A stretch of DNA of 64,000 nucleotides from Eubacteriales bacterium (GTDB lineage: Bacteria; Bacillota; Clostridia; Oscillospirales; CAG-382): positions 72,031 to 136,030 of the forward strand of contig JAZTXY010000086.1 of NCBI GenBank assembly GCA_045636665.1. The letters are read 5' to 3'. Positions 2,368-52,578 of the stretch are shown piece after piece (within the stretch, counting starts at the first letter, position 1; each line of letters starts with the position of its first letter). The position numbers were made by a program, and so were the translations under genes. The notes beneath the pieces are model-generated. The model did no database searches. It saw only the letters and a program-made list of their open reading frames with translations, and had not been told where the DNA came from.

Positions 2368-2387
2368 TCGTTTAAGAGATAATAAAA

Positions 2388-2421
2388 AAGCAAGGCGGTT
2401 TAATACGCCTTGCTTTTTGTT
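2388..2421 (+). terminator. Rho-independent terminator after the zinc-ribbon gene
   Basis: Stem AAGCAAGGCG/CGCCTTGCTT followed by a T-run. Confidence 0.7.
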
Positions 2422-2432
2422 TTGTTACCATT

Positions 2433-2512
2433 GCCCTTCAAGTCCCCTCAAAACAAAACCAAAAAGCACCCATAAAGGGTGCTTTTCGCTTTTGGTGCAG
2501 CTGATGGGACTT
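2433..2512. repeat. 80-bp direct repeat, copy 1: orphan copy of the last 20 nt of tRNA-Leu plus its downstream terminator
   Basis: 79/80 identical to 2614-2693. Contains TGGTGCAGCTGATGGGACTT (reverse complement of the tRNA-Leu 3' end) and the hairpin AAAGCACCC-ATAAA-GGGTGCTTT. Confidence 0.9.
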
Positions 2513-2613
2513 TTTGTTCGCTATCGCAACTTGCCGTGCGGTTCCACCGCACTCACGTTGCTTCGCTCACAAACCTGTGGCGGTCGAAACAGTTCCCCGA
2601 ACTGTTTCTCTCC

Positions 2614-2693
2614 GCCCTTCAAGTCCCTTCAAAACAAAACCAAAAAGCACCCATAAAGGGTGCTTTTCGCTTTTGGTGCAGCTGATGGGACTT
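2614..2693. repeat. 80-bp direct repeat, copy 2: overlaps the genuine 3' end of tRNA-Leu and its terminator
   Basis: Same 80 bp as 2433-2512. Identity ends inside the T-arm of the tRNA (..GGGACTT). Confidence 0.9.
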
Positions 2694-2756
2694 GAACCCA
2701 TACGGTTGCCCACACGCCCCTCAAACGTGCGCGTCTGCCAGTTCCGCCACAGCTGC
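2674..2756 (-). tRNA. tRNA-Leu (anticodon GAG), CCA encoded
   Basis: The reverse complement reads GCAGCTG-TG-...-CACGT-TTGAGGG-GCGTG-long variable arm-GGGTTCAAGTCCC-CAGCTGC-A-CCA. 83 nt, class II long-arm tRNA. Confidence 0.9.
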
Positions 2757-2810
2757 ATATCTAATTGTTTGCGTTTGCTCTAAGAGGGATTTCCCAAACG
2801 CGCAAGAACT

Positions 2811-2838
2811 ATTATACACGAATATTTGTATTTGTCAA
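2811..2838 (-). promoter_or_regulatory. Sigma-A type promoter for tRNA-Leu
   Basis: The minus strand reads TTGACA-N16-TATAAT about 50 nt upstream of the tRNA 5' end. Confidence 0.6.
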
Positions 2839-2875
2839 TACCTTTTTTGCAAAAAACGAAAAAAATGTTATTGCG

Positions 2876-3085
2876 TCAAATTTCAAAAAATACTGTGTCG
2901 TCGTCAGGCAGTTTTTTCGGCATCGGCGACAATTTAAGGAGGTCAAATTTGAATTTTCTGCAGGTCGAGGTTTGCGCGACTGCGCCGTTGATTTTGCAAA
3001 TGCAGATATCCGATTCGCGGATAATTACCGCATTTTCGCAATACGCGCAGATTTGTTCAATATCATCGTTGCGTTTTTTCATCAA
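2876..3085 (-). CDS. Small Cys-rich protein (69 aa), function unknown
   Basis: AAAGGAG RBS 9 nt upstream of the ATG. Cys pattern CAYC...CIC...C. Lies downstream of and co-oriented with the ylbJ-like gene. Confidence 0.6.
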   Translation of the reverse strand: MMKKRNDDIEQICAYCENAVIIRESDICICKINGAVAQTSTCRKFKFDLLKLSPMPKKLPDDDTVFFEI

Positions 3086-3138
3086 TTTTCGCTCCTTTCG
3101 GCTATTTTATATTAATATAACCCAAAAACTTCTTTTTG

Positions 3139-4014
3139 TCAACCGAAAATAAGTGCCAATAAGGTCATCACCGCGCAAGAGATTGTTTTTCCGAGCAAAT
3201 AAGGCTTTATCGAAAGCTTGCCCGACAAAACGTTTTTCACCTGCATCGCTACCGATGCTCCGCAATGCCCCAATGCGAATGCGGTTACGGGTATAGCGAA
3301 GCTGTCAAGCGTTGCTGCCTCGGCACAGCCCGAGGAAAATTCAAGCAGCGATTTGAAAATGGCAAAGGCGCTTTTTGAAAGTTTTATCGCGTGTGAAAGC
3401 GCATCGCTTACGACGATAAAAAACAACGCGCTCGACGCGATATTTATCATTGTCATTGCGCTGTCGGTAATCGCTTCCGAAAGCGTTGCTTTTCTTGTAA
3501 GCGTTGCGCAGGCATTCGGTAATTTTTCTTTGCCATAGATGATTTTTTTCATTACCGTTGCGGTTACGACCGACGAAATAAGCTGATAAACAAGCAACCT
3601 CGCACCGATAAAAACGTCGCCGAAAAGCTCGTTGCCCACGAACCCCAAAACGAACGAGGTGCTCGCGTTGTTCGTAAACGAGCAAAGAAATTCGGCGAAT
3701 CTTTTGTCTATCTGTCGGTTTTCGTAAAGAGAAAGCGAAATTTTCGCGCCTATCGGGCATCCGCAAAGCGTACCGATGATAAGAGTTATCGGCACAAGCC
3801 CTATTTTTATCGAAAGCCTTTGAACCAAGGCGGTTGAAATTACGGTTTTTGCAAGGACTGCATAGATAAAAAGCGAGGGGATGAGCGTTTTCGCGCAGAA
3901 GCCGAGCGCAAAGCGTGTCGGCTCGGATGCATATTGCGGAAAAGCAAGTAAATAGATGAACAGACCGATAAAAACGCAGTCCGAAATATGGGATAATATA
4001 TTTTTCGGTTTCAT
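3139..4014 (-). CDS. Polytopic membrane protein, YlbJ-like sporulation integral membrane / nucleoside-recognition (Gate) family
   Basis: Multi-TM protein. I chose the internal ATG at 4014, which has a GGAGTG RBS, over the track start at 4149, which would overlap yqfC. FTNNASTSFVLGFVG resembles the YlbJ family. Shorter than B. subtilis YlbJ. Confidence 0.55.
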   Translation of the reverse strand: MKPKNILSHISDCVFIGLFIYLLAFPQYASEPTRFALGFCAKTLIPSLFIYAVLAKTVISTALVQRLSIKIGLVPITLIIGTLCGCPIGAKISLSLYENRQIDKRFAEFLCSFTNNASTSFVLGFVGNELFGDVFIGARLLVYQLISSVVTATVMKKIIYGKEKLPNACATLTRKATLSEAITDSAMTMINIASSALFFIVVSDALSHAIKLSKSAFAIFKSLLEFSSGCAEAATLDSFAIPVTAFALGHCGASVAMQVKNVLSGKLSIKPYLLGKTISCAVMTLLALIFG

Positions 4015-4057
4015 AAAATCACTCCAAGACGAGTATATTGAAGCGGTGAGAGTTTTT

Positions 4058-4294
4058 ATGAAATGGTTGCTTGATTTATTCAAAACGGCAACGCCGATAT
4101 TTGTTGAGATAAGAGGCAGGGAAACGGTGCTGGCAGAGGGATATTGCAAAATAGTGCTTTATTCCCCCACTCAAATAGTCCTTGCCAATGCCGACTATTC
4201 AATATCGGTCGGCGGAAGCGAGCTTGAGCTTCGGCATTTAAGCGAATCGGCAATAGCGATCGACGGGAGGATAGATAGGGTTGAATTTATATAG
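4058..4294 (+). CDS. yqfC: YabP/YqfC-family sporulation protein
   Basis: EIRGRETVLAEGYCKIVLYSPTQIVL...LELRHLSESAIAIDGRIDRVEF is typical of YqfC. Overlaps yqfD by 14 nt. I chose the ATG at 4058 instead of the track start at 3956. Confidence 0.75.
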   Translation: MKWLLDLFKTATPIFVEIRGRETVLAEGYCKIVLYSPTQIVLANADYSISVGGSELELRHLSESAIAIDGRIDRVEFI

Positions 4295-5504
4295 ACCTTT
4301 GCATTACGTCTTCGGTGAATATGTTTTTTCGGCAGATTCACGCTCCTTTCCGCGTTTGACAACTTTGATGCAAAAAAACGGATTTAATTTTTGGGGCACC
4401 CGTTATGAGGACGAAAGAATTTCCTTTTGCGTTACCCTGCAATCGGCAGAGCGTGTCGTGAATCTCGCAAGGGAAGCGTCGATTCCGATTGAACTGTCTG
4501 CGAAAAGGGGGATTCCCTTTATCTTTTCGCGATACCGCAGAAGATACGGAATGCTTTTGGGGCTTATCATTGGGCTGTTTTTAATGTTTTGGTCACAGCT
4601 TTTCGTTTGGAAGGTGACTGTAAGCGGAAACAGCGAAATAAAAATTGCCGAAATCGAGCAGGCGCTTAGTGAATGCGGAATCTCCGTCGGGAGCTTTATT
4701 CCCAACATCGATACCTTGGGGGATGCAAACCGATTGTTAATGTCCTGCCGCGGTCTTTCGTCTGCCGCGGTGAGTATAAACGGCACTCACGTGCATATTT
4801 CGGTGCTTGAACGAAAAAACGTGCCCGATATCGTCAACGCTAACGGATTTTTCAACGTAGTCGCATCGGCTGACGGAGTGATTCTCGACGTAAATGCGGC
4901 AAACGGCACACCCGAGGTGCGCGAGGGAGAGGTCGTTTATGAGGGAGAGCTTTTAATCAACTCTTTTATAACGGGTAAAAACGGAAGCTGTCGCCCAACT
5001 CACGCGCGCGGTACAGTCTTCGCCGCCGTAAGCAAGACCTTTAATATTGAAATACCGCTTTCCCGTGTGACGAAGAATTTTACGGGCAACCGCCAAACAC
5101 GTTACGTTTATACGATTTTGGGGAAGGAAATCCCGACTTTTTCGCAGGGGCAAAGCGATTACGAATATTTCGATGCAACGGTTAGCGAACGAACGGTCAA
5201 GCTTTTCGGATTTATCGAGCTTCCGATAAAGGAAAAACGTATTACTTACAGCGAGTACGTTCCGATACCGCGCGAAATCGATGAAGTCAAAGCCGAGGAA
5301 TACGCGTGTGATGAGCTTGATGCTTTTATCGCCGAAGCCGACCTCGAGCTGCTTTCCTGCGAAACCTTTTTTGCCGCAGACAAGGAAAAAGGCGTTTGCA
5401 AGCTGGTTGCAAACGCCGTATTCAAGCAGGATATTGCCAAAGAGGTTCCTTTTGAAATATTAAATTACAATATTTCCGAAAGGTTTGAAAGCGATCTTGA
5501 ATAA
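4281..5504 (+). CDS. yqfD: Sporulation protein YqfD
   Basis: TTG start with a GGGAGGA RBS 9 nt upstream. ~400 aa with a central TM helix (LLGLIIGLFLMFWSQLFVW). Conserved yqfC-yqfD gene order. Confidence 0.8.
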   Translation: MNLYRPLHYVFGEYVFSADSRSFPRLTTLMQKNGFNFWGTRYEDERISFCVTLQSAERVVNLAREASIPIELSAKRGIPFIFSRYRRRYGMLLGLIIGLFLMFWSQLFVWKVTVSGNSEIKIAEIEQALSECGISVGSFIPNIDTLGDANRLLMSCRGLSSAAVSINGTHVHISVLERKNVPDIVNANGFFNVVASADGVILDVNAANGTPEVREGEVVYEGELLINSFITGKNGSCRPTHARGTVFAAVSKTFNIEIPLSRVTKNFTGNRQTRYVYTILGKEIPTFSQGQSDYEYFDATVSERTVKLFGFIELPIKEKRITYSEYVPIPREIDEVKAEEYACDELDAFIAEADLELLSCETFFAADKEKGVCKLVANAVFKQDIAKEVPFEILNYNISERFESDLE

Positions 5505-26666: not shown

Positions 26667-28052
26667 TCAGCGACCTCCGATCATAACCTTACAGCGCAAT
26701 GCGGGACCGCCCATACCGACAGGCATAGGTTGCTTTTTGCCGCAAAAGCCCGAGCTTGACCAAACGACCTCGTCGGACACCATATCGACGGTTTTGAGCA
26801 TATTAAAGGCAACGCCCGAAATCGTCGTATCGAGAAGCGCGCGTCCGAGCTTGCCGTTCTTTATTTCATAGCCCATCGAAACACCAAACATAAATTCACC
26901 CGTTGTGTCCGCTTGACCGTTGCTCGAATCGATAAGATAATAACCGTCGTCAACGCTTGCGATAATATCCTCAAGCTTGTCCTTGCCGGGAAGCACTGCG
27001 GTGTTACGCATACGGATAAGCGGCTCGTCCGAGAAGCCCCACGCTCTTGCGTTTCCGCAGGGCTCCATACCGAAGCGCTGTGCAGATTCGCGGTTGTTCA
27101 TATATCCGACAAGTATTCCGTTTTCGATTATCTTCGCATCCTTCGCCTCAACGCCCTCGTCATCAACGTAAACGGGAAGCGGCGCTTTTTCGCCAAACGC
27201 GGTGTGCGCGAAGTCGGTAAGATTAACGATTTCACTTGCAACCTGCTTATGGAGATTGGGACCTGCAACGCTTCCGCCAAGCACAAGGTCGGCTTCAACG
27301 GTGTGTCCGACCGCCTCATGCGCGAGCATACCCGTCATCATACCGCCCAAAACAACCGTCTTTTCGCCCGCATCGGCATAAACGCCCTCGCGCTTTTGCA
27401 TAAGACGCTCGTAAAGCGCATCGATTTCGGCATAAAGTGATTCGGGATTTTTGAAATTCGTTTCGAATCCGCCCTCACCGCCAAGCGCCTTGAAAAGCTC
27501 AACGGGAACACCGTTTGACGTTTCCGCGTTAAGAAAGACGTATATATACGAGCGCTGTAAGCAGGTGTGCGCATCGAATCCGTTGGAAACGCAAAGAAGC
27601 TTTTCTGTCGAATCCTCACGCGCGGCTACGGTTCGGCTTGTTAAATTCTTGTATTTTTCGGAAATATAAGCATCGATGCTTCTTGCGAAATCAACGTAAG
27701 CCTTTTGCTCGGTATCGTTGATGCCGTTTACCAAAAACTGTTTGCCGTTGCTTAATTGAGGGAGCATAGGTCTGCCCTTGTTTACGTTTTTATCCATAAA
27801 TTCGGCGTTTTCGTTCGCGGCGCGAAGCACCTCTTTAACCGCATCGGTCGAATATTCCGCCATCGAGGCAAAGCCATAGGTGCCGTTTTTGTAAACCCTT
27901 GCCGAAATGCCCGAAATATCCTGTCGGGCATTGCCCGTAAGGTTGCCCGAAACAATGGTTGCTCCGCGTGAGCGCGAAAGCTGACCGCGAAGCTCGGTGT
28001 GAGCGTTGGGTAAAAACAACGCCTTTTGGGGAGTTAATATATCCTTAAGCAA
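26667..28052 (-). CDS. tldD: TldD-family metalloprotease
   Basis: HEAVGHTVEAD zinc motif. I chose the TTG at 28052, preceded by AAGGAGG, over the track ATG at 28115. Confidence 0.8.
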   Translation of the reverse strand: MLKDILTPQKALFLPNAHTELRGQLSRSRGATIVSGNLTGNARQDISGISARVYKNGTYGFASMAEYSTDAVKEVLRAANENAEFMDKNVNKGRPMLPQLSNGKQFLVNGINDTEQKAYVDFARSIDAYISEKYKNLTSRTVAAREDSTEKLLCVSNGFDAHTCLQRSYIYVFLNAETSNGVPVELFKALGGEGGFETNFKNPESLYAEIDALYERLMQKREGVYADAGEKTVVLGGMMTGMLAHEAVGHTVEADLVLGGSVAGPNLHKQVASEIVNLTDFAHTAFGEKAPLPVYVDDEGVEAKDAKIIENGILVGYMNNRESAQRFGMEPCGNARAWGFSDEPLIRMRNTAVLPGKDKLEDIIASVDDGYYLIDSSNGQADTTGEFMFGVSMGYEIKNGKLGRALLDTTISGVAFNMLKTVDMVSDEVVWSSSGFCGKKQPMPVGMGGPALRCKVMIGGR

Positions 28053-28162
28053 AATAAAATACCTCCTTACTGTATCTTTATATAGTATAACACCGCTTGA
28101 TGCTTTTGTAAACATTTTTCGGTTATGCCGCAGGACTTTCGGTGTTTTCGTTGTGTTATATA

Positions 28163-28209
28163 TTTTTTTAAAAAATATGTGACAAAACGTATAATTTTTT
28201 CGTCTTAAC
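28163..28209 (+). promoter_or_regulatory. Promoter-like module, copy 1 (TGTGAC-N17-CGTCTTAAC preceded by an A/T tract)
   Basis: TTTTTTTAAAAAATATGTGACAAAACG-N10-CGTCTTAAC ends 30 nt before the GLUG lipoprotein start. Repeated at 29834-29880. Confidence 0.5.
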
Positions 28210-28238
28210 AGATGAAACCAAAAAAGGAGGTTGTTCCA

Positions 28239-29780
28239 ATGAAAAAAATATTGGCATTATCAATTGTATTCGTATTTATTTTCACTTTCCTTGTAGGATG
28301 CAACGAAACGGTAGATATCGAAAGCGGCGATGAAAGCGTCGCAGAGCAGAGCGCCGAATCGAAGGACTCGGCAGTTGATAGCGAAGACGAAGGCGGTGGC
28401 GCGGAAAGCGATGACGCTTCGGTTGAATCAGACCCTGAAGAGCTAAAAATATCCGATTATTTTGCCGAGGTATTCAACAGAAATGCCGAGTCGAAAATAT
28501 ATTGTATCGACAATATAGAGCAGCTTTATAATTTTGCAAGCCTTGTTAATGAAAAGGGAATTGATTTTGACGGCGACGTTGTTTTGTTGCGTAACGATAT
28601 CGAATTGAATCCCACCGACGATATCGACGATTGGGAAAACAACCCTCCCGAAAACGTATGGGAGCCGATCGGAACGACGATTCCGTTCAAGGGGCAATTC
28701 ATCGGCGGTAGCGCGGAGAAGGTCGGAGCTATTTACTCTTACAAGACCGAAATAAAGGAAATAAGCGGTATTTATTGCTCCGACGACAAAAAAACAATAG
28801 GCTTGTTCGCAAATATCGAGGGCGCACAAATATCAAATATTAAGCTCGGCAAGGGAAAGCTTGACGGCGAAAACGAAAAGTCTTTCATTTATGCGGCGGG
28901 CATCGCTGCTTTCGCCGTTGACTCGGAGATCATCGGTTGCATTAATTATGCCGACGTTACAAGCGCATTTGCCGCGGGCATTGTATTTGATGCGACAGAC
29001 TCTAAAGTTATTTGGAGCGGTAATTACGGCAGCATATCCTCGGAAAACGGAAGCTCCGCAGGCATCGCAAACCGAATAAAAGGCGGAGAAATTTTCGGGT
29101 GCAATAACTATGGAACGATCAACGGAACCGATGCCGCAGGTATTGCATGCAATCAGGGCGGAAGCGTTATAAGATGCTGCGTAAACAAAGGAAACGTGAC
29201 GGCGAAATGTTATGGCGGCGGTATACTCGGACACAGCTCGATCGATTCGGGAGCTTCGGTATTGGCTTCCTGCGCTAACTACGGAAAAATCGTAAGCAGA
29301 GAGACAGCGGGCGGTATAATCGGTTCCGTTTGGGAAGGACAAAGCTCGCTGTGGGTAATGGACGTGCTTAACGTCGGAAACGTAGTATATGAAGAATACG
29401 GTCAGACCGATGAGCATGGTCAGACCGATGAGCGCGACCGTTTTGCAGGAGGCATTGTGGGCAGTGTTGTGCTTTGCTCGGTCGACGGCTTGGGTGATTT
29501 TCGTCTTGACGGCGCACTCAATTTAGGGCAGGTGACCGCTTCGGGCAATCACGGTGCGATAATCGGCAACGAAGGTACTCATGACTATCTCGTCGATTTG
29601 TGTGACAATTGCTTTTATCTCGATACAACGGTCGAAAAAAGCGTTATCGGCAAAGCCGTCAGAAAATCCAAGCTGACTGACACCAAAACGCTTGACGGTC
29701 TTTTGGACGGTATGAATTGGGAAATGGACGAAGAGCTCGGACATCCGATTCTTGCGAGAGATCACGTTTCGGCAGAATGA
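28239..29780 (+). CDS. GLUG-motif repeat lipoprotein (putative surface protein)
   Basis: AAGGAGG RBS. Lipobox FLVGC and an acidic linker. Repeated AAGIA/GGGILG/AGGIIG/AGGIVG GLUG-like units. AT-richer codon usage. Confidence 0.7.
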   Translation: MKKILALSIVFVFIFTFLVGCNETVDIESGDESVAEQSAESKDSAVDSEDEGGGAESDDASVESDPEELKISDYFAEVFNRNAESKIYCIDNIEQLYNFASLVNEKGIDFDGDVVLLRNDIELNPTDDIDDWENNPPENVWEPIGTTIPFKGQFIGGSAEKVGAIYSYKTEIKEISGIYCSDDKKTIGLFANIEGAQISNIKLGKGKLDGENEKSFIYAAGIAAFAVDSEIIGCINYADVTSAFAAGIVFDATDSKVIWSGNYGSISSENGSSAGIANRIKGGEIFGCNNYGTINGTDAAGIACNQGGSVIRCCVNKGNVTAKCYGGGILGHSSIDSGASVLASCANYGKIVSRETAGGIIGSVWEGQSSLWVMDVLNVGNVVYEEYGQTDEHGQTDERDRFAGGIVGSVVLCSVDGLGDFRLDGALNLGQVTASGNHGAIIGNEGTHDYLVDLCDNCFYLDTTVEKSVIGKAVRKSKLTDTKTLDGLLDGMNWEMDEELGHPILARDHVSAE

Positions 29781-29806
29781 TATGCATATTTAAAAAGTCG
29801 GGATCT

Positions 29807-29840
29807 CTTTTAAGGGGTCCCGATTTTTTTAAAAAAATAT
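29807..29840 (+). terminator. Rho-independent terminator after the GLUG gene
   Basis: GTCGGGATC...GGTCCCGAT followed by T7. Confidence 0.65.
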
Positions 29841-29880
29841 GTGACAAAACGGCAAAAAATCCGTCTTAACCTATGGGAAG
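29834..29880 (+). promoter_or_regulatory. Promoter-like module, copy 2 (TGTGAC-N16-CGTCTTAAC)
   Basis: The 28-nt and 9-nt blocks are identical to copy 1. Lies 116 nt upstream of blaI. Confidence 0.5.
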
Positions 29881-29892
29881 CAAAAATAATCG

Positions 29893-29978
29893 AATGCGTT
29901 AGACTATTTTTCCGAAAAGCTATTGACAAACCCAATCTAATGTGATAGACTATACTCGTCAAATGCATTAGACTATTT
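29893..29978 (+). promoter_or_regulatory. blaI-operon sigma-A promoter flanked by two 17-nt direct repeats (candidate operators)
   Basis: TTGACA (29923)-N17-TAGACT (29946). AATGCGTTAGACTATTT at 29893 and AATGCATTAGACTATTT at 29962. TAGACTAT occurs three times. Confidence 0.5.
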
Positions 29979-29995
29979 AGTTTTGGAGAAATATT

Positions 29996-30358
29996 ATGGC
30001 AAACGTTCCGAAGATTTTCGAAAGCGAATACAGATTTTGTCTTATCCTTTGGGAGAATGAACCGATTGCGTCAAAGGAGCTTGTGCGTATATGCAAGGAA
30101 AAGCTTGAATGGTCGCGCACTACCACCTATACCGTAATAAAGCGTCTTGCCGAAAGGGGAGTTTTGGTTCATGACCATACTGCCGTTCGCTCGCTCGTTT
30201 CCAAGGATGACGTGCAGCTTGCCGATTTCGATGAATTTTTTGAAAAGCGGTTCGAGGGCTCGTTACCTGCATTCGTTGCGGCGTTTGCAAGACACCAAAA
30301 TCTTACCGAGGATGAGCTGAGCCTGATCCAAAGCATAATTCAACACGGAGATAAATGA
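29996..30358 (+). CDS. BlaI/MecI/CopY-family transcriptional repressor
   Basis: 120 aa. Winged-helix sequence EWSRTTTYTVIKRLAERGVL and a C-terminal dimerisation region. Immediately upstream of the M56 gene. Confidence 0.8.
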   Translation: MANVPKIFESEYRFCLILWENEPIASKELVRICKEKLEWSRTTTYTVIKRLAERGVLVHDHTAVRSLVSKDDVQLADFDEFFEKRFEGSLPAFVAAFARHQNLTEDELSLIQSIIQHGDK

Positions 30359-30359
30359 C

Positions 30360-33300
30360 ATGGCAAACTTTTTTCTTGAAATATTCAATTTGAGCTTGGC
30401 GGCTTGTTGGCTTATCGGAGCTATTGTAGCCGTGCGCGCAATTTTCGCAAAAAGTATGCCGAAGTGGCTTGTCTGCTGTCTTTGGGGCTTGGTTGCGGTA
30501 AGATTGCTTGTTCCCGTTACGCTTGAAAGCAATATATCGCTCGTTCCCAATCAACAGCTCGAGCTTTTAATCCCGAACGAAGGCATCGGCGAGGTTTCGG
30601 AATATGTTGAAGAATCGCTTCCTTCTTTTGAAGAAAATGGTATCGATTCAACTGTTTCGGCGCCTGTAACCGATGAAGCCGTGTCATCGCCCGTAACCGA
30701 CGAGGAATTTTCCGCGCCGATTGTCGATGAAACCGTTTCTTCGCCCGTAACCGACGAAGAAGTATCTTCCCCCGTAACCGACGAAGCCGTTTCTGCCCCG
30801 ATTATCGAGGAAAATGCTTCTGCGCCCGTGACCGATGAAAATATATCGGCTTCGGTTCAGGATACCGTTATCGGCGACCAAAATACCGAAGATGTCGGCA
30901 AAACCGACGTTGCAGTTAACGGCAATATCGTTCAATCGGAAAAAACGGAGCATTCAAAAAAGGTTTCGAGCAATTTTGCCACAATTGCGTTTGCGGTATG
31001 GGCAATCGGATTCTTTTTGATGCTTGAATATTCGGTCGTAAGCTATATTCTCCTCAAAAAACGCGTTGCAATGTCGTTCCCTTGCGGCGACAAGGTACGC
31101 AAAGGCGAGGGCGTGGATTCTCCGTTTATTTTCGGACTTTTCCGTCCGCGTATTTATATCCCTTTCGGATTAAGCCAAAGAACCGAAGAATGTGTTATTG
31201 CGCATGAAAGAGCGCATTTTAAACGCCGCGACTATCTTATAAAGCCCTTTGCGTTTTTCATTCTTTCGGTGCATTGGTTCAATCCCTTCGTATGGTTGGC
31301 TTATATCCTTCTTTGCCGCGATATCGAATATGCCTGCGACGAGAAGGTCGTTGACGGTCTTGACGCCGATTCGCGTAAAGCGTACGCCCTTGCGCTGCTC
31401 GAATGTGCAGTCGCGCACCGACGTATTACCGCTTGTCCCGTAGCTTTCGGCGAGACCGGAGTGAAAGAAAGAGTGAAAAATACAATGAAATACAAAAAAC
31501 CCGCATTCTGGATAGTTATTGTTTGCGTTATCGTTTGCATTGCCGTTGCCGTGCTGTTTTTAACAACGGGCGTGGGCGGAAGTGAGGATTCCGACACCTC
31601 GTCGGAGGCATCGGACACCTCGTCGGAGGCATCGGACCCCTCGTTGGAGGCATCGGGCGAAAATCAAGTTGAACAAGACGAGAAAAATTATATCGATGAC
31701 CTTTTCGCGGCTGAATTTGTCGAATACGAGGATCTCGGCAAATACCAAAACTGCGTAAGGTTTGAATCGAGCGTTGAATACAACGTAATGAGCGTGCTCA
31801 TTACACCCAAGACAACGATATACGATTTTAAAATATATTCGTTGGAAGACAATATCGATACCGTAACACTTGAAAACATTCTTTTTGAAGCAAAAAGCAT
31901 TTCCGCCGATAAGCCGCTTCTTGCGGATATTGAGTTTGGCGATATACTTGCCGAAAACGGAATATCGTTTACCGACGAAAACGGTAATGAGTATCTTTAT
32001 AAACTTGTCGATAGTGCGTACGACGGAAAATTGATAGTTTCCGACGTGACGACGGAAGCGTCCGAGGAGAGCGATGGCACCCTTATAGTAAACGGTATCG
32101 ACATTACCAAAGGAAGCGGCGTGAAAATCTATGACGACCGTGCTGAGTTGCCTTTTGTCGCTATAATGGAAGCGTTGGGAATATCGTTTGAATGGAAAAC
32201 AGACAGCACTGCCATAATGACGTACGGTTCGATTAAACCGTATCTTTTAGACGTAAAAAAAGGAGAATTGACCGACTATGTCGGAGGTGACGGCAGAAAT
32301 CACTTTACGGCATACAGCGATTCACCTCTCGGTTTTGTTTCTCTTGAAAAAGAAATATTGATTGACGATGTCAATGCTGCTGCGTTTTTCTCCGAAATGG
32401 GTTTTGTGTTCAGAATTTCTTACTTTGATATAAATTTCAAAGATAAGATTATCAGTATCGGCAGAGATACAAATGATTATAAATGCACGCTCATTGTAAA
32501 CGGAAATGATATTACCGACAGCACTCATGTAGTTATGAAAAGCGATGATGGCAATTATACGCTTTTGCCGTTCGTTGAGATTATGGAGGTGCTTGGAGCC
32601 GAATTTGAATGGGAAAGTGACTATGTTGCAAAAATAGAATTTCTCGAAATGCGGTTTGCGTTGAATGTAAAAGAATGCAAATTAATCGCCGAAGAAAATG
32701 ACGTTAATCTTATTAGTCCGCCGTTGGGAGGAACAAGAAAATTCTCTGCCGACAAGAAGGAATTAATAGTCGACAATGTTACATTAAAACAATTTTTTGA
32801 TGCCGCGGGAATTAACGCGCTATATGACTATAACAAAAAAATTGTTACGATCAGCACAAAATCTTCGGGGAACGAAGCAAGCAACAACGAACCCCACGTT
32901 CACGTTTACGGGGAATGGAAAACGGTTACTGCCGCGACCTGTCAAAGTACGGGTGTGGTCGAGCGTGTTTGCTCTTGCGGTGACAAGCAGCTTCAAAGCG
33001 TGAATATAACTCAGCATAAATACGTCAACGGCGTTTGCTCTTGCGGTGCGATCGAAAGCGCAAGCGACATCGAGGACGGAACGTTGACGTTCAGTATGAC
33101 AAACGGCGGATATAAGGTTTCGGGAAAGGGTTTTAACGGCAGCGTGGTCGTTATCCCGAGCACCTTTATGGGAAAGCCGGTTGTTGAGATTGCTCAGGAT
33201 GCATTTGGCGGAAACCGCAATATCGAAAGAGTCGTGATTCCCAAAACCGTTAAAACGATTGGTAGTCATGCGTTTTTGCATTGCTTTTTCCTTAGAGAGG

Positions 33301-34340
33301 TTATTTTTGAAGAGGGAAGCGAGCTTATAAGCATCGGCGACAGCGCGTTCAATAACACCGCGATCGTTTCGATAACACTGCCCGAGGGCTTAAAAACCAT
33401 CGGTGAGGGTGCGTTCAATTCCTGCGACGATATGAAGGAAATAACTCTGCCCTCTACGCTTAAATCAATCGGCAGTAACGCCTTCAGATACTCTACCGTT
33501 AGCAAGGTTACTGTCAAAGACATAGGCAAATGGTGCACTGTTTCGTTTGGTAACGAATATGCTAACCCTGCATATATTTCGCAAAGCCTTTATGCTCCCG
33601 ACGGCTCTTTGGTTACAAGAGTAAACGTTTCCAACGGAGCGTCCGAGATATCGGCGTATGCCTTTTGCGGAGTGAAAACCATCGAAAGCGTAAGCATTCC
33701 GTCGACCGTTAAGAAAATCGGAGTCGATGCGTTTGCAGATTGCAAGACTCTTGACGTTTATATTACCGACCTCACAAAATGGGCACAGGTTTCTGTTGCG
33801 AGTGCAGATTCTCTGCCCGGCAAGCGACTGTTTCTTAACGGTGTCGAGATAAAGGACGTCGTTATTCCCTCGGGTGTCACCTCGATAGGAAGCTATGCCT
33901 TCAGCTTTGCATCGCTTACCTCGGTCACCGTGCCCGATACCGTGAAAACCATCGGAGAGGGTGCTTTTCACTATTGCACAAATCTTCAAAGCATAAAGCT
34001 TTCAAAGAACCTTACCGAAATACCGAAGAATATGCTTTACGGTGCATCGTCGTTGAAGACGGTTGTTATTCCCAATACGGTAAAAACTATTGGTGAATCG
34101 GCATTTGAGGGTTGTATCTCGCTTGAATCGATGTTCATACCCGCAAGCGTTACCTATATCGGAAAGCACGCGTTTGAAAATTGCGGTAGCTTGAAGGAAT
34201 TTGAATTCGAGGTCAAGGACGGCTGGGTATGCGCCGCAACCGGTGGCGACTATACGGTCCATGCAAGCGATCTTTCAACATCGTATAAAACGATAGCAAA
34301 GATAAAGGATTACAATTTTGCACCGTGGGTGCGAAGATAG
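30360..34340 (+). CDS. M56 (BlaR1/MecR1-type) membrane metalloprotease fused to a ~900-aa extracellular region (Cu-amine-oxidase-N-like x2, Cys cluster, ~12 BspA-type LRRs)
   Basis: IAHERAHFKRRDYLIKPF (HExxH) sits between TM helices. LIVNGxDIT..LPFVxIMExLGxxFEW occurs twice. Repeated IPxTVKxIGxxAFxxC units run to the C-terminus. Confidence 0.8.
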   Translation: MANFFLEIFNLSLAACWLIGAIVAVRAIFAKSMPKWLVCCLWGLVAVRLLVPVTLESNISLVPNQQLELLIPNEGIGEVSEYVEESLPSFEENGIDSTVSAPVTDEAVSSPVTDEEFSAPIVDETVSSPVTDEEVSSPVTDEAVSAPIIEENASAPVTDENISASVQDTVIGDQNTEDVGKTDVAVNGNIVQSEKTEHSKKVSSNFATIAFAVWAIGFFLMLEYSVVSYILLKKRVAMSFPCGDKVRKGEGVDSPFIFGLFRPRIYIPFGLSQRTEECVIAHERAHFKRRDYLIKPFAFFILSVHWFNPFVWLAYILLCRDIEYACDEKVVDGLDADSRKAYALALLECAVAHRRITACPVAFGETGVKERVKNTMKYKKPAFWIVIVCVIVCIAVAVLFLTTGVGGSEDSDTSSEASDTSSEASDPSLEASGENQVEQDEKNYIDDLFAAEFVEYEDLGKYQNCVRFESSVEYNVMSVLITPKTTIYDFKIYSLEDNIDTVTLENILFEAKSISADKPLLADIEFGDILAENGISFTDENGNEYLYKLVDSAYDGKLIVSDVTTEASEESDGTLIVNGIDITKGSGVKIYDDRAELPFVAIMEALGISFEWKTDSTAIMTYGSIKPYLLDVKKGELTDYVGGDGRNHFTAYSDSPLGFVSLEKEILIDDVNAAAFFSEMGFVFRISYFDINFKDKIISIGRDTNDYKCTLIVNGNDITDSTHVVMKSDDGNYTLLPFVEIMEVLGAEFEWESDYVAKIEFLEMRFALNVKECKLIAEENDVNLISPPLGGTRKFSADKKELIVDNVTLKQFFDAAGINALYDYNKKIVTISTKSSGNEASNNEPHVHVYGEWKTVTAATCQSTGVVERVCSCGDKQLQSVNITQHKYVNGVCSCGAIESASDIEDGTLTFSMTNGGYKVSGKGFNGSVVVIPSTFMGKPVVEIAQDAFGGNRNIERVVIPKTVKTIGSHAFLHCFFLREVIFEEGSELISIGDSAFNNTAIVSITLPEGLKTIGEGAFNSCDDMKEITLPSTLKSIGSNAFRYSTVSKVTVKDIGKWCTVSFGNEYANPAYISQSLYAPDGSLVTRVNVSNGASEISAYAFCGVKTIESVSIPSTVKKIGVDAFADCKTLDVYITDLTKWAQVSVASADSLPGKRLFLNGVEIKDVVIPSGVTSIGSYAFSFASLTSVTVPDTVKTIGEGAFHYCTNLQSIKLSKNLTEIPKNMLYGASSLKTVVIPNTVKTIGESAFEGCISLESMFIPASVTYIGKHAFENCGSLKEFEFEVKDGWVCAATGGDYTVHASDLSTSYKTIAKIKDYNFAPWVRR
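30654..30869 (+). repeat. 27-nt (9-aa) tandem repeat x8 inside the M56 gene
   Basis: VSAPVTDEA / VSSPVTDEE / FSAPIVDET ... The copies diverge at synonymous sites. Confidence 0.85.
31593..31655 (+). repeat. 21-nt tandem repeat x3 (DTSSEAS linker) inside the M56 gene
   Basis: GACACCTCGTCGGAGGCATCG occurs twice, followed by one diverged copy. Confidence 0.85.
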
Positions 34341-45485: not shown

Positions 45486-45596
45486 TGGACAAAACGAAAA
45501 AATATGTTATTATATTTTCAGAAAAAACGTTAACCAAATCATTTTTCTTTCACTATAAGGGCAGAAGCTTCTAAAAACACACAAGGAGGTGAGCAG

Positions 45597-47150
45597 ATGA
45601 ACAGAAAAGAACTTCACGATAAGATTGCAGAGGTATCGAAAACGATTTTTTCGTACTGTATGGCGAAAACACCCACACGGGAAGAAGCCGAGGATTTATC
45701 GCAGGATATTTTGTGCGAGCTGTTGAAATCGGCGGAAAACATCCGTGATGACAGGGCGTTTTACTCTTTTATGTGGGGCGTTGCAGGAAACGTCTATAAG
45801 CAATGGTACAGGAAGAAACTAAAAAATACTGCAAGCGAATTGACAACCGAAATTCCAACGGAAGATGCTTTCATTGAAGACGAAAACAATGATATATATC
45901 TTTTGCGTCGCGAATTGACTTTGCTGTCGGAAAAACACCGTAAAGCAACGATTATGTACTATGTCGACGGACGTTCTTGCTCGGAAATTTCATCTGCGCT
46001 CTCCGTTACGGAAAATACGGTGAAATATCTGCTTTTTAAATCGAGAAAAATATTGAAAGAAGGAATGAATATGGAAAGAAATCTTGGCGAATTAAGCTAT
46101 AATCCGAAAACATTAATCCCGATGTATAGCGGTCATGGCCCTAACCAATTTTGGGAGTTTATGCAGAGTAAAATAAGACAGAATATCGTTAGCGCTTGCT
46201 ATAACGATGCGCTTACAGTTCAGCAAATCAGCCTCGAAACAGGTATCCCGCTTCCGTATCTTGACGATGAAATTAAAGAACTTGAAGACAAACAAATCAT
46301 AATTAGAGAAGGAAAACACTACAAAGCAAATGTGATTATTATAACATCCGAGTGTGCCGACGAAATTGAACGTGCTGTTGCAAAAAATCATGAACAGATT
46401 GCTGATAAAATGACGACTTTTATTAGCGACAAGTTAAATGAATATAAAAATCTTAACTTTGTAGGTCACGATTTTTCGGATAACACATTGCGATGGCAGC
46501 TTGCTACCATTCTTTTTAGAATGATCTGCGTGGTGGATTGCAGTGATACCATAGATGCACCTAAAACAGGATGGGGCGAATCTGCTTATCTTTGGTGTGT
46601 GGAGAAGTTAAACGAGAAACATATATTCTCTTATTGCGGTGTGGATGATAAACACGGAAACAGTTTATACTTTTTTGACTATTGGAAAGACCGCAAGGGA
46701 AAGGGCGATCATCACGATTTTTACGGAAAAGAACGTTATATCAATATTTTCTGTGACATCTGTCGCGAGAACCATGCTTCTTTCAGCGAATATGATCTTG
46801 AAGCAATTGCAGAAATGATAAAAAAAGGATATGTTATCAAGGAGAACGAAACTTACAAAGCCACCGTTCCTGTTTACTCTTTGGAACAATATCTAACCAT
46901 TATCAATATTGCAAAGGAATTTATATCCGCCGAACTTGTATCGATTGTTCGAGAAATGGATAAAACCGCCGCACAAATTTTAAGTGCACATACGCCAAAG
47001 CATTTGCAGAGTCAGGTGGCAGGAATTGCCTCTATGGATAAGTTTGTTAATGCCGTTTGCATTCCCGCAACCATTCTTATCGAAAGACAATTTTTGAGCA
47101 CCGCATGGCATCCTCTTGAAATGCCTGCCACATACGTTGTTTTGAAGTAA
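45597..47150 (+). CDS. Sigma-70 family (ECF-like) sigma factor fused to a ~330-aa C-terminal domain of unknown function
   Basis: AAGGAGG RBS. Region 2 (EEAEDLSQDILCELL) and region 4 (YYVDGRSCSEISSALSVTENTVKYLLFKSRKIL). No TM helix. AT-richer codon usage. Confidence 0.7.
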   Translation: MNRKELHDKIAEVSKTIFSYCMAKTPTREEAEDLSQDILCELLKSAENIRDDRAFYSFMWGVAGNVYKQWYRKKLKNTASELTTEIPTEDAFIEDENNDIYLLRRELTLLSEKHRKATIMYYVDGRSCSEISSALSVTENTVKYLLFKSRKILKEGMNMERNLGELSYNPKTLIPMYSGHGPNQFWEFMQSKIRQNIVSACYNDALTVQQISLETGIPLPYLDDEIKELEDKQIIIREGKHYKANVIIITSECADEIERAVAKNHEQIADKMTTFISDKLNEYKNLNFVGHDFSDNTLRWQLATILFRMICVVDCSDTIDAPKTGWGESAYLWCVEKLNEKHIFSYCGVDDKHGNSLYFFDYWKDRKGKGDHHDFYGKERYINIFCDICRENHASFSEYDLEAIAEMIKKGYVIKENETYKATVPVYSLEQYLTIINIAKEFISAELVSIVREMDKTAAQILSAHTPKHLQSQVAGIASMDKFVNAVCIPATILIERQFLSTAWHPLEMPATYVVLK

Positions 47151-48775: not shown

Positions 48776-49678
48776 ATGTTCGAAAAGCGTACGGATCTCG
48801 CCCTTGAGGTGCATGAATTGCACGGAAAAGACTCGGGCATAAGCGTAAATGAAGTAACCGTCGGTGAAATTACCGTAACCTATGCCGATATAAAGGATGG
48901 AGAAGGTGCGCTTCTTTCGGGCAAGCCCGCAGGGAGATATATCACCTTCGACGTCGGTGAGCTTCACAAAAAGGGAAGCGACGAGTTTGTTGCCGCCGCA
49001 ACGCTGATAGCCGATGAGATGAAGGGGTTGTTTCCCGATAATTGCAAAAGCTTTCTTGTTGTCGGATTGGGAAACGAATCGATAACGCCCGATTCGGTCG
49101 GGCCCAAAGCCGTGAAAAAATTACTCGTCACACGCCACATCGAATTTATCGACAAAACGCTTTATAACGACGCAGGCTTTGGCAACCTCGCCGCAATAAG
49201 CCCCGGCGTTTTGGGACAGACGGGAATTGAAAGCAGGGATATTATATCGGGCGTGGTGCAAAAAGTCAACCCCGATTGCGTAATTATTATCGATTCTCTC
49301 GCGTCGCGCCGTCTTGCCCGTCTTGCAACCACGGTTCAGCTTTCAAACACCGGCATTTCACCCGGCTCGGGAGTTGACAACAGACGCGTTGAATTGAGCA
49401 GAGATACGCTTGGTGTTGCCGTGATATCGATTGGAATCCCAACCGTTGTCGACGCCGCAACGCTTGCTTGTGACCTGCTCGAGGAGGCGATAGGGGAGGA
49501 AAACGAAGCGCTTAACCAAATTATCGAAAAGGTGTTTTCGACCGACCGAAAAGGTATGTTCGTAACGCCGAAGGAAAATGACGTTATCGCAAAAAACTCG
49601 GCGAAGCTTATCGCAACGGTGATAAATATGGCGGTTCACAATATGTCCGTTTCGGAAATTAACGGCTTTTTGTCATAA
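48776..49678 (+). CDS. gpr: Germination protease (GPR endopeptidase)
   Basis: MFEKRTDLALEVHE..., GLGNESITPDSVGP and IIIDSLASR motifs. Confidence 0.85.
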   Translation: MFEKRTDLALEVHELHGKDSGISVNEVTVGEITVTYADIKDGEGALLSGKPAGRYITFDVGELHKKGSDEFVAAATLIADEMKGLFPDNCKSFLVVGLGNESITPDSVGPKAVKKLLVTRHIEFIDKTLYNDAGFGNLAAISPGVLGQTGIESRDIISGVVQKVNPDCVIIIDSLASRRLARLATTVQLSNTGISPGSGVDNRRVELSRDTLGVAVISIGIPTVVDAATLACDLLEEAIGEENEALNQIIEKVFSTDRKGMFVTPKENDVIAKNSAKLIATVINMAVHNMSVSEINGFLS

Positions 49679-49720
49679 AGCTTGTCCCTTGTGAATATAA
49701 TTACACGAGGAAGTGATAAA

Positions 49721-50812
49721 ATGAAAAGAAGATTGACACTTAACCAAAGACAAGCGCTTCTTAAATGGGGCTGCTTGGTGCTGTCGGCGCTGATGCTTGT
49801 CGGAGTATTTACGGCGATACCGTATATTGTAAACGCACTGCCGAAAATGGATAGCGAAACGGTGCGCGACGTATTAAACGGAAACGAGGCGATGGGAGGG
49901 GCAATTCCGCAATATCCGCTTGGCGGAGGAAGCTTTGAAACGTCAAACGAAACGTCTGTCCCCGATGAAAACGAGGGAGAATTCGAACCCGAGGAGCCCA
50001 TCCCCATACCCGAACAGGGGGAATACGACCTATCGGTAACTCCGAGCAATCTTGCTTGGTATGATGCGACCGAAACGCCGATGCTTAATATAATCAACCG
50101 CACTAAGTACTCGGTGAACCTTAATTCCTTTCTGACAAGACCTTTCCCGATAAACACCGAAATAAACGATTCGCCGTTGGTGCTTATCGTACATACTCAC
50201 GGAAGCGAAAGCTATCTTGAAAGCGGATACGATTTTTATTCGCCCGACGAAACATTTCGCTCGCAGGAGGTCGAAAAAACAGTGGTTCACATCGGAGAGG
50301 TGCTGTGCGAAAAGCTTAATTCGTTGGGGATAGGAACGGTTCACGATACAACGATGTACGACCTTACCGATTTCAACAAATCCTATAATTACTCGCGCGA
50401 GGGGATAAAAGCCGCCCTTTCGAAATATCCCACAGTTCGGTTCGTTATCGACCTTCACCGCGATTCGGTTTTCGATTCGGACGGCAACAACATTAAACCG
50501 CTGACAACGCTTAACGGCAAAAAATGCGCTCAGCTTATGCTTGTGGTCGGCACCGACGAGGGCGGCTCGGCTCATCCCGATTGGCGCGATAATTTAACCT
50601 TTGCAACGCATCTTCAACAAAAAATGAACGATTACTATCCAACCCTCGCAAGACCGATAAATCTGCGCACCGCTGCATTTAACCAAGCGCTCACAAAGGG
50701 CAGTGTTCTTTTGGAGGTGGGCTCTTGCGGTAACACTGTCGAGGAGGCCGAAAACGCAGTTTTGCTTTTTGCTCAAGCGTATGCAAGTATGCTGAAGGAA
50801 AATTTAAAATAA
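49721..50812 (+). CDS. spoIIP: Stage II sporulation protein P
   Basis: GAGGAAGTG RBS. N-terminal TM helix. IVHTHGSESY and VIDLHRDS motifs. Confidence 0.8.
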   Translation: MKRRLTLNQRQALLKWGCLVLSALMLVGVFTAIPYIVNALPKMDSETVRDVLNGNEAMGGAIPQYPLGGGSFETSNETSVPDENEGEFEPEEPIPIPEQGEYDLSVTPSNLAWYDATETPMLNIINRTKYSVNLNSFLTRPFPINTEINDSPLVLIVHTHGSESYLESGYDFYSPDETFRSQEVEKTVVHIGEVLCEKLNSLGIGTVHDTTMYDLTDFNKSYNYSREGIKAALSKYPTVRFVIDLHRDSVFDSDGNNIKPLTTLNGKKCAQLMLVVGTDEGGSAHPDWRDNLTFATHLQQKMNDYYPTLARPINLRTAAFNQALTKGSVLLEVGSCGNTVEEAENAVLLFAQAYASMLKENLK

Positions 50813-50821
50813 TAAAGCAAC

Positions 50822-50849
50822 AAAAAAGGACTTGTGCAAGTCCTTTTTC
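50822..50849. terminator. Bidirectional terminator
   Basis: AAGGACTTG-loop-CAAGTCCTT with flanking A- and T-runs. Confidence 0.7.
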
Positions 50850-50851
50850 GT

Positions 50852-51118
50852 TTATTTCGTATTTATTTCATATCTGACGAGAATCGTATCCTTGCCGATG
50901 CGTTCGATGTCACGCCAAGGAATAACCGTTCGGTTTTTGGTCGAAAGCGAAGCGAGCAACCCGTTGCCGGGGATGATTAGCGCGGTTATTTCGCCCGTGC
51001 AGGTGTTTACTTCGAGGTCGCCGATGCAGCCGAGCAGACTGCCGTCGCAAAGATTGATTACCTCTTTGTTTTTAAGCTCGGAAAAGCAGGATATGACGGG
51101 TATCAAAGCAGTATGCAT
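50852..51118 (-). CDS. ymxH: YlmC/YmxH-family (PRC-barrel) sporulation protein
   Basis: SELKNKEVINLCDGSLLGCIGDLEVNTCTGEITALIIPG. Overlaps the spoIVA stop by 16 nt. The exact start is uncertain. Confidence 0.75.
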   Translation of the reverse strand: MHTALIPVISCFSELKNKEVINLCDGSLLGCIGDLEVNTCTGEITALIIPGNGLLASLSTKNRTVIPWRDIERIGKDTILVRYEINTK

Positions 51119-52578
51119 ATCAAACCGCCGCTGCCCTCGTTGATGATGCGCTGAATCGTACCCGCAATCTTTGCCCGTGCATCGTCGGGCATATGGGCGA
51201 GCTTGCTGTTAAGCCCCTCGCTTACAAGCTCGTGGAGTGTTTTGCCGAACATATTCGATTCCCAAATGCTTTTCGGGTCTTCCTCGAACTCCTTTAAAAG
51301 GAAGCTCACAAGCTCCTCCGATTGGCTTTCGGTTCCGACAATCGGATTTACCTCGGTTTCGATGTCGGCCTTCATCATGTGGATAGAGGGCGCGCTTGCC
51401 TTTAATTTCACGCCGTAACCGCCCGGCTGCTTTACGATTTCGGGCTCTTCAAGCGTAAGGTCGTCAATCGAGGGCATAACGATACCGTAACCGTCGTTCA
51501 TAGCATCGTCGATAGCGCCTGCGACCTTGTCGTATTTCTTTTTAACTTCGGCAAGCTCGGTCATAATGGTAAGCAACGCGCGTTCGTTTTCGATTTCAAA
51601 TCCGCTCTTTTCACCGAGTATGCCGTAAAAGATTCTGTCGGGGATGCGAACGTCGATTGCCGCGCTTCCTTTGCCGAGGTCAAGACGGTCGAGCTTTGCC
51701 GTCATATCGCCGCCTTGGGCAAATGCTTCCGCCGCATCGCGTATTTCACCGACACGTCTTAAGCCGTTTACCGTTTCGGTAACCGCGGAAAACAAATTGG
51801 CTCTCAGCTCATCGTTTTCGTCAAGCACGTCGATCCAGCTCGGAAGCGAAAAAGCAACCTCGCGTACGGGAAATTCATAAAGCAAGCCGCGAAGGATGTC
51901 CTTGATGTCCGAATCGTCCATATTTAAGCAGTTTATCGGGATAACGGGCACGTCGTATTCCTCTTCGAGCTTGTTTGCCAAAGCTGTCGATGACTGTGCG
52001 TTCGGGTGCGCGCAGTTCAAAACCACAACGAACGGCTTGCGCAACGCCTTTAATTCCGAAACGACACGAGCCTCGGCTTCCTCGTATGCCTCTCTCGGCA
52101 ATTCACCGACAGTGCCGTCGGTCGTAACAACAATACCGACGGTCGAATGCTCCTCGATAACCTTTCGCGTTCCCGTTTCTGCGGCGGCTTCGAAGGGAAG
52201 CGGCGATTCCGACCAAGGCGTCATAACCATTCTCGGATGACCGTCCTCGATAAGACCCATTGCGCCGGGTACGATGTATCCGACACAGTCGATAAGCTTG
52301 ACTCGGCATTCGGTTTCTTCGTCAAGCGGAATGCTGACCGCCGATTCGGGGATGAATTTCGGCTCGGTGGTCATAACCGTCTTTCCCGATGCCGATTGCG
52401 GCATTTCGTCCTTTGCTCTTTCCCGTGCAGACTCGGTTTCGATGTTAGGTAAAATAAGGTTTTCGGTAAACCTCTTGATAAGAGTCGATTTTCCCGTTCT
52501 TACGGGTCCGACGACCCCAATGTAAATGTCACCGCCCGTGCGGTTCGCTATGTCACTGTATATTCCCATATCGGTCAT
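51103..52578 (-). CDS. spoIVA: Stage IV sporulation protein A
   Basis: AAGGAGG RBS. DIYIGVVGPVRTGKSTLIKRF Walker A motif. 491 aa. Confidence 0.9.
   Translation of the reverse strand: MTDMGIYSDIANRTGGDIYIGVVGPVRTGKSTLIKRFTENLILPNIETESARERAKDEMPQSASGKTVMTTEPKFIPESAVSIPLDEETECRVKLIDCVGYIVPGAMGLIEDGHPRMVMTPWSESPLPFEAAAETGTRKVIEEHSTVGIVVTTDGTVGELPREAYEEAEARVVSELKALRKPFVVVLNCAHPNAQSSTALANKLEEEYDVPVIPINCLNMDDSDIKDILRGLLYEFPVREVAFSLPSWIDVLDENDELRANLFSAVTETVNGLRRVGEIRDAAEAFAQGGDMTAKLDRLDLGKGSAAIDVRIPDRIFYGILGEKSGFEIENERALLTIMTELAEVKKKYDKVAGAIDDAMNDGYGIVMPSIDDLTLEEPEIVKQPGGYGVKLKASAPSIHMMKADIETEVNPIVGTESQSEELVSFLLKEFEEDPKSIWESNMFGKTLHELVSEGLNSKLAHMPDDARAKIAGTIQRIINEGSGGLICILL

Follow-up and report, generated by a model that had tools for sequence, protein, structure and literature searches.

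The 47-nt module that occurs twice in a 64,000-nt stretch of a Eubacteriales genome (contig JAZTXY010000086.1; the whole stretch is hereafter the window, with position 1 its first letter and all coordinates given on that scale) is most likely a non-housekeeping promoter read by a sigma factor of the extracytoplasmic function (ECF) type and shared by unrelated lipoprotein genes. The first copy directly precedes a gene for a GLUG-like lipoprotein, and the second, located between that gene and the blaI-M56 operon, appears to be a leftover duplicate. Based on sequence comparisons, this reading is given a probability of roughly 0.7. Copy 1 occupies positions 28163-28209 of the plus strand (TTTTTTTAAAAAATATGTGACAAAACGTATAATTTTTTCGTCTTAAC), exactly where the initial annotation of this DNA had placed it. 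Copy 2, which had been placed at 29834-29880, is found 10 nt further left, at 29824-29870 of the plus strand, with TGTGACAAAAC at 29840-29850 and CGTCTTAA at 29862-29869. Its distance to blaI (ATG at 29996) is 125 nt rather than the 116 nt given originally, and copy 1 ends 29 nt, instead of 30 nt, before the true start codon of the lipoprotein gene. The described pattern of identity (28-nt and 9-nt blocks in common around a differing centre) is borne out by the repeat analysis (families D2 and D3): T7-A6/7-TATGTGACAAAACG is common to the copies except for one added A, CGTCTTAAC shows no difference, and the central 10/11 nt diverge. The proposed architecture, TGTGAC-N17/16-CGTC, likewise holds, copy 1 having N17 and copy 2 N16. 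Pairs of the form TGTGAC-N15-18-CGTC number two in the window, where 0.23 would be expected, and a count of two was reached in 0 of 100 shuffles. The repeats do bracket the lipoprotein gene as had been pointed out, and the T-run that opens copy 2 is at the same time the U-tail of the terminator of that gene.

Conservation of the module was examined in related loci (labelled L001 and so on), ten of which were located through homologues of the GLUG-like protein. The orthologous gene is syntenic in all ten (L001-L010), and gene order is preserved as far away as L003 (60% protein identity) and L004 (41%), running tldD/pmbA (minus strand), GLUG-like lipoprotein, blaI, M56 sensor, oadB, and onward as far as malQ. 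In a footprint alignment (A2) of the tldD-GLUG intergenic region from six lineages, which were identified through protein homologues sharing 91% to 41% identity, the sole invariant blocks are ATGTGACAAA, CGTCT, and the ribosome-binding site (RBS). The spacer sequence diverges and the upstream part is unalignable across these lineages; the spacing from TGTGAC to CGTC is constant at 16-17 nt. The versions of the module in L003 (TGTGACAAATTGTATTTTTCTACGTCTATA) and L004 (TGTGACAAAATCATGATTTATACGTCTATA) both have N16, and a spacing of N16-17 is seen in all 23 distinct instances.

Outside this locus, the module recurs in front of a set of lipoprotein genes. A scan for the exact pattern TGTGACAAAAC-N11/12-CGTCTTAA in one genome per species (185,579 species, 596 Gb) returned 16 stretches, all of them in metagenome-assembled genomes (MAGs) of Clostridia/Eubacteriales from the gut of buffalo, sheep, roe deer, or humans; the pattern specifies 19 bases, for which our own estimate is fewer than about 10 chance matches in 596 Gb. 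Four of the 16 stretches are the tldD-GLUG locus. Among the 12 matches beyond it, 11 lie in the correct orientation 24-33 nt upstream of lipoprotein start codons, and the genes behind them belong to six families with no detectable mutual similarity beyond the signal peptide and with almost no Pfam content. In every module-linked lipoprotein, an acidic Ser/Glu/Asp-rich linker comes after the lipobox cysteine, and the spacers, leaders, and signal peptides differ among the families that carry the module. The spacers also differ among the eight independent sites (the identity of the boxes in scan matches is imposed by the search pattern). Several shared features lie outside that pattern: the -35 box is preceded by a T-run/A-run and CGTC by a T-tract, the predicted start carries tAGrTG, and the distance from TGTGAC to the start codon stays within 57-63 nt. 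In five MAGs, the module is present on two separate contigs. The exception among the 12 (L017, 1457-1487) comes from a human-gut Eubacteriales MAG, where it lies 156 nt ahead of rpoB; it has neither the flanking A/T tract nor the T-tract and is therefore probably due to chance. The other lipoprotein genes of the window (at 24468, at 47770 on the minus strand, and at 59887) lack the module, which therefore marks a subset of lipoproteins.

Some further observations concern the distribution of the module. L014 has a copy of the module between two paralogous lipoprotein genes in tandem (1790-5412, minus strand), and is thus a second locus at which the module separates repeated lipoprotein genes. 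The same DNA pattern produced two matches in a scan of metagenomes of the Joint Genome Institute (JGI), one of which is clearly unrelated. The other (L028, 10622-10652 of JGI contig Ga0074195_1002192) matches exactly, about 90 nt before the gene for a lipoprotein-like product (…LLTVGC) with a Pro/Thr-rich region in an apparently GC-richer organism, and could be either a chance match or a distant occurrence. A homology search with the 52-aa signal peptide and linker alone, aimed at all lipoproteins sharing this N-terminus, returned one fragment only, and no description of the motif string was found in the literature searched.

Housekeeping promoters in the window are of the canonical TTGACA-N17-TATAAT type, and the module is therefore a separate class of promoter. 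Two features expected of ECF promoters are present, namely a CGT(C)-type -10 element with a -35 box 16-17 nt upstream, and conserved boxes around a free spacer in orthologous as well as independent promoters. The mapped promoter of Tt-RpoE1, an ECF sigma factor of Thermoanaerobacter tengcongensis, reads tGTTAC-N16-CGTC, in which specificity is set by the CGTC at -13 to -10, and similar CGTC-type -10 elements have been noted for SigX, SigW, and SigM of Bacillus subtilis (PMC3397946). By the numbering of Tt-RpoE1, transcription would start at a conserved G, 10 nt downstream of CGTC, at 28214 in copy 1 and 29875 in copy 2; the tAGrTG motif is conserved at this predicted position in independent sites. 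The longer motif tAGrTGwAA lies just downstream of CGTCTTAA (28209-28216 in the window, and at the same place in L012-L025) and is partly complementary to CGTCT, in the form CGTCT-N4-AGAyG. The A/T tract ahead of the -35 box may have an UP-element-like function. The positions of these features, together with those of the neighbouring genes, are collected in the table.

Features of the module locus, with positions in the window.
Feature	Position	Strand	Content or basis
A/T tract T7A6, UP-element-like (putative)	28163..28175	+	T-run then A-run recurs upstream of independent copies though outside the search pattern
Copy 1, -35-type box TGTGACAAAAC	28178..28188	+	ATGTGACAAA invariant in six lineages; common to unrelated lipoprotein promoters
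Copy 1, remainder of spacer GTATAATTTTTT (variable part and T-tract)	28189..28200	+	Spacer differs between copies and lineages
Copy 1, -10-type box CGTCTTAA; CGTC is an ECF-type -10	28201..28208	+	CGTCT invariant in six lineages; Tt-RpoE1 precedent (PMC3397946)
Predicted 25-nt leader	28214..28238	+	RBS AAGGAGG at 28225-28231; start at G28214 predicted from CGTC at -13 to -10
GLUG-like lipoprotein gene, 513 aa	28239..29780	+	Signal peptide to lipobox LVGC (Cys21), then acidic Ser/Glu/Asp-rich linker
Intrinsic terminator of the GLUG-like gene	29797..29830	+	Hairpin 29797-29823 and T7 29824-29830; fold -19.5 kcal/mol, z -5.3
Copy 2	29824..29870	+	A/T tract 29824-29837, TGTGACAAAAC, CGTCTTAA, spacer N16
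Degenerate leftover of duplicated leader, CTATGGGAAGCAAAAATAA	29871..29889	+	Repeat family D3 and alignment A1
Control region of the blaI operon	29890..29995	+	Three TAGACTAT-type repeats at 29890-29909, 29936-29955, and 29959-29978 (D1)
blaI (Penicillinase_R, 120 aa) and M56/BlaR1-type sensor with BspA-type LRR domains (1326 aa)	29996..34340	+	Pfam, NCBIfam

There are several points that weigh against assigning the module to an ECF sigma factor. Most ECF promoters carry an AAC core in the -35 box, which the module does not: the box at the proper spacing is GTGAC, with GAC in its place, and the AAAAC downstream of GTGAC is only 12 nt from CGTC. The weak inverted repeat formed by tAGrTG and CGTCT could be a start-site context or the binding site of a regulator. 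A sigma-A promoter may overlap the module in copy 1 of the window, and could add housekeeping expression of the lipoprotein gene in this strain. That the boxes are perfectly conserved among the scan matches follows in part from the exact-match search, and regulon members with weaker sites are therefore invisible to it; a scan of the approximately 300 kb of examined sequence with a position weight matrix (PWM), built from 10 independent sites, found no weaker sites. Within the same sequence there is no sigma factor gene with the module upstream, which would be the usual ECF autoregulation, and the sole ECF-type sigma factor of the window does not fit as the cognate one.

That sigma factor, the product of 45597-47150, had been proposed in the initial annotation as the factor that might read the module. 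The protein is an ECF-type sigma factor of 517 aa (TIGR02937, 64 bits) with a cytoplasmic C-terminal extension of 350 aa, and is highly conserved in this bacterial group, with hundreds of homologues at 65-87% identity. Its cognate role is not supported: its gene has a sigma-A-type promoter and no module upstream, and when the protein is aligned to SigW, SigL, and SigE, a glutamine stands in place of the DXXR aspartate. In Tt-RpoE1, this aspartate reads the G at -12 (PMC3397946). Upstream of the orthologous genes in L029 and L030, the extended -10 element TGaTATAAT and the leader are kept, and the TGTGGACAAAACG box is not. The two boxes that had been listed as related to the module exist as strings, yet neither has a CGTC partner or is conserved in relatives: TGTGGACAAAACG at 45484 has no CGTC downstream and is a chance resemblance, and TGTGACAAAC at 36259, before malQ, is a chance match, the conserved malQ promoter being TTGCGA-N17-TATACT. 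The idea of an alternative, ECF-type promoter shared by surface-protein genes is supported for copy 1 (invariant boxes in six lineages and at least six unrelated lipoprotein families) and not supported for the 45597 sigma factor and the malQ box, while its extension to blaI-M56 is doubtful. In composition, the sigma factor gene also stands apart from the rest of the window (GC 0.391, z -2.9; z -3.2 for GC at third codon positions, GC3), and its leader of about 60 nt (upstream region 45520-45596), TTAACCAAATCATTTTTCTTTCACTAT(A/T)AAGGCAGAAGCTTCT, is nearly unchanged in L029 and L030, a conservation that suggests a regulatory leader.

The alternative that survives best is that copy 2 is a selected, functional second promoter and that blaI-M56 is truly co-regulated with the lipoprotein genes, which is conceivable but less likely. 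Both boxes of copy 2 are intact in the window and in L001, there is no terminator between copy 2 and blaI, and the N16 spacing also occurs in the functional-looking orthologous promoters of L003 and L004. Between the window and L001, identity is 98% in copy 2 and 100% in the terminator, compared with 86% in the blaI control region and 63% in other intergenic DNA. Nevertheless, L003 and L004 have no copy 2 before blaI, the -10 box of copy 2 is deleted in L006, L007, L008, and L009, and in L002, L006, and L023 a full copy precedes another lipoprotein gene rather than blaI. The PWM score of copy 2 is 28.8, versus 48.8 for copy 1 and 43-53 for full copies located directly before close-clade lipoprotein genes, because its spacing is 16 nt, the T-tract is missing, and the start region diverges from the consensus. 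Moreover, blaI has a sigma-A promoter of its own (TTGACA-N17-TAGACT, 29923-29951) in a control region that is conserved in L001, L003, L004, L006, and L007, and the three 20-nt direct repeats (TCnAATGCnTTAGACTATTT-type, 29890-29978) that overlap this promoter are probable BlaI operators, preserved at all related loci.

The states of the region between the GLUG-like gene and blaI in sister genomes, as read from alignment A1 and the raw locus sequences, point instead to a leftover duplicate. Copy 2 is absent from the more distant L003 and L004. In the window and L001, the terminator is followed by the full module, about 20 nt of degenerate leader, and then the blaI operators, and the homology of the leader remnant to the leader of copy 1 stops at the A-run preceding the RBS. 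Copy 2 and its leader in L002 precede a YD/RHS-repeat lipoprotein of at least 607 aa, with a signal peptide and first mature residues that are those of the GLUG-like protein. A second full unit (module, leader, RBS, and identical signal peptide and N-terminus) precedes a lipoprotein of 291/300 aa in L006 and L023, followed by a duplicate of the 3' end of the GLUG-like gene with its terminator, a third, truncated module, and blaI. The blaI-adjacent copy in L006, L007, L008, and L009 has a 36-nt deletion between two A-runs that removed the -10 box, and L007, L008, and L009 retain only TGTGACAAA(A) of copy 2. Sister genomes thus hold both the full duplicated unit and further truncations of it, and because these graded states fit the pattern expected of unequal recombination between promoter/terminator units, copy 2 looks like a duplicated promoter with part of its leader, left behind at a hot spot of lipoprotein gene gain and loss.

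Another alternative is that the module combines a sigma-A promoter with a conserved operator, such that the boxes are binding sites for a transcription factor; this is considered improbable. A sigma-70 scan finds TTTAAA-N17-TATAAT within copy 1 with a score of 10/12 (TATAAT at 28190-28195), GTGACA is similar to TTGACA, and the weak inverted repeat CGTCT-TAAT-AGATG and the conserved motif of the start region would suit a regulator. The TATAAT, however, is specific to the window. Close relatives have CATAAT at this place, and the hexamer is missing from the spacers of the independent sites and of copy 2, so that it does not represent a conserved function. Conserved TTGACA-like and TATAAT-like hexamers 16-18 nt apart are not seen, such a pair being present in copy 1 of the window only, and no copy has a TAnnnT hexamer 16-18 nt from GTGACA. 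The two boxes show no symmetry and do not repeat one another, and a spacing of 16-17 nt around a freely varying spacer is characteristic of promoters. Relative to all close relatives, a C-to-T change has created the perfect sigma-A -10 element in the copy 1 spacer. A promoter for a sporulation sigma factor was also considered, and the consensus motifs of such factors do not fit the boxes of the module.

That the module copies are scars of recombination, or repeats akin to attachment sites, around a mobile cassette with the single GLUG-like gene is very unlikely. Direct repeats do bracket the gene exactly and genes beside module copies vary in presence among related genomes, but the varying genes are other lipoprotein genes downstream of the GLUG-like gene. 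The GLUG-like gene itself has tldD on one side and blaI on the other in all relatives, even at 41% identity, and its GC and GC3 are typical. No recombinase was found among the Pfam-scanned neighbours, which include tldD/pmbA, blaI, M56, and oadB, and at unrelated loci the repeats stand at a constant distance from the start codon, as a promoter would. The presence or absence of the gene in relatives had been suggested as a check, and the orthologue is present in 10 of 10 related loci, including L003 and L004 with their single module. What remains of the cassette proposal is that the module marks a site at which other lipoprotein genes are added and removed by recombination, which acts between duplicated segments of two kinds, promoter/leader/signal-peptide and 3'-end/terminator.

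The claim that the GLUG-like gene is compositionally atypical is contradicted by its GC content of 0.475 (z +0.17) and its GC3 (z -0.36), both typical of the window. Nor does the assigned GLUG domain appear in the protein, which has no Pfam (E<=0.01) or NCBIfam match; PF07581 is found only in distant homologues. Translation from the true start codon (ATG 28239, downstream of the RBS) gives the product MKKILALSIVFVFIFTFLVGC, and the longer open reading frame from 28212 merely begins at an upstream in-frame ATG. The terminator of the gene was overlooked by a consensus terminator scan and is revealed by RNA folding. Within the gene, an 18-nt tandem duplication (29391-29426, repeat family D5) encodes GQTDEH/GQTDER. 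Exact-sequence look-ups of the GLUG-like and BlaI proteins of the window and of a 100%-identical match (P0001) returned no records. A 41-nt near-palindrome (28149-28189) with 20-nt arms that are 85% complementary is centred on the T-run/A-run of copy 1; it was rejected as a functional element because L001, L002, and L007 do not conserve the left arm, and is probably incidental. An Rfam covariance-model search of 27900-30100 gave only a sub-threshold miRNA match (21 bits against a gathering score of 211). Elsewhere in the window, the sporulation genes gpr, spoIIP, and spoIVA are present at 48776-52578, and the organism is therefore probably a spore-forming member of the Clostridia.

The layout of copy 1 would be that of a complete promoter, in which an A/T tract is followed by the -35 element TGTGACAAAAC, a spacer ending in a T-tract, the -10 element CGTCTTAA, a start at G28214, and a 25-nt leader. 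One promoter class would then drive otherwise unrelated lipoprotein genes in an uncultured lineage of gut Clostridia and, being shared by them, would define a lipoprotein regulon. Copy 1 would be the ancestral promoter of the GLUG-like lipoprotein gene, and unequal recombination would have left copy 2 between the terminator of that gene and the blaI control region. If copy 2 fires, transcripts from near 29875 would run through the BlaI operators into blaI-M56. A more far-reaching proposal, that a single dedicated sigma factor controls a set of surface-tethered lipoproteins in this lineage and that the near-invariant promoter of about 45 nt, joined at certain loci by the leader and signal peptide, doubles as a portable homology block for adding, swapping, and deleting lipoprotein genes, is a rather improbable speculation; if it were true, the regulation and the diversification of the surface lipoproteome would be coupled.

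For practical purposes, TGTGACAAAAC-N12-CGTCTTAA provides a sequence handle for co-regulated, uncharacterised surface lipoproteins in uncultured Clostridia of the ruminant and human gut, which could be used for listing the regulon from MAGs, for finding the cognate sigma factor by the same promoter, and for reading metatranscriptomes. The locus also illustrates how the gain and loss of surface-protein genes can be driven by duplicated units of promoter, leader, and signal peptide. In addition, it calls for caution in annotation, since the promoter ahead of blaI-M56, although it looks intact, may be a relic and no evidence of co-regulation.

Promoters for alternative sigma factors, with the regulons they control, are already known, and the module would be a further instance of this kind of element. 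The promoters of SigM, SigX, SigW, and SigV in B. subtilis have the form TGnAAC-N16-17-CGTn, and the corresponding regulons concern the cell envelope. The module is similar to them in architecture, spacing, and its CGT-type -10 element, but it has GAC where they have the AAC core, its boxes are much longer and nearly invariant, and its regulon as seen consists only of lipoproteins of uncharacterised function. The likeness to the Tt-RpoE1 promoter includes a host from the Clostridia, a bipartite structure with G-T-x-A-C at -35, a spacing of 16-17 nt, a CGTC -10 element with a T-rich tract upstream of it, and, in the L003 and L004 versions of the module, TATA following CGTC. The module differs from it in having TGTGAC in place of TGTTAC, extended to the 11-nt TGTGACAAAAC, and a -10 element extended to CGTCTTAA, as well as in its targets, which are lipoprotein genes; no autoregulated sigma/anti-sigma operon was seen in the approximately 300 kb examined. 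Multigene families of surface lipoproteins with a shared 5' expression region also exist, as in the variable lipoproteins of Mycoplasma. At the tldD-blaI site, different protein bodies similarly come with an identical promoter, leader, and signal peptide and begin their mature part with the same ~25 residues, and their number varies between genomes. Unlike in those families, however, the locus has no sign of a phase-variable switch (e.g., an invertible element, homopolymer switch, or recombinase), copies of the module elsewhere have unrelated leaders and signal peptides, and the variation lies between genomes instead of within a population.

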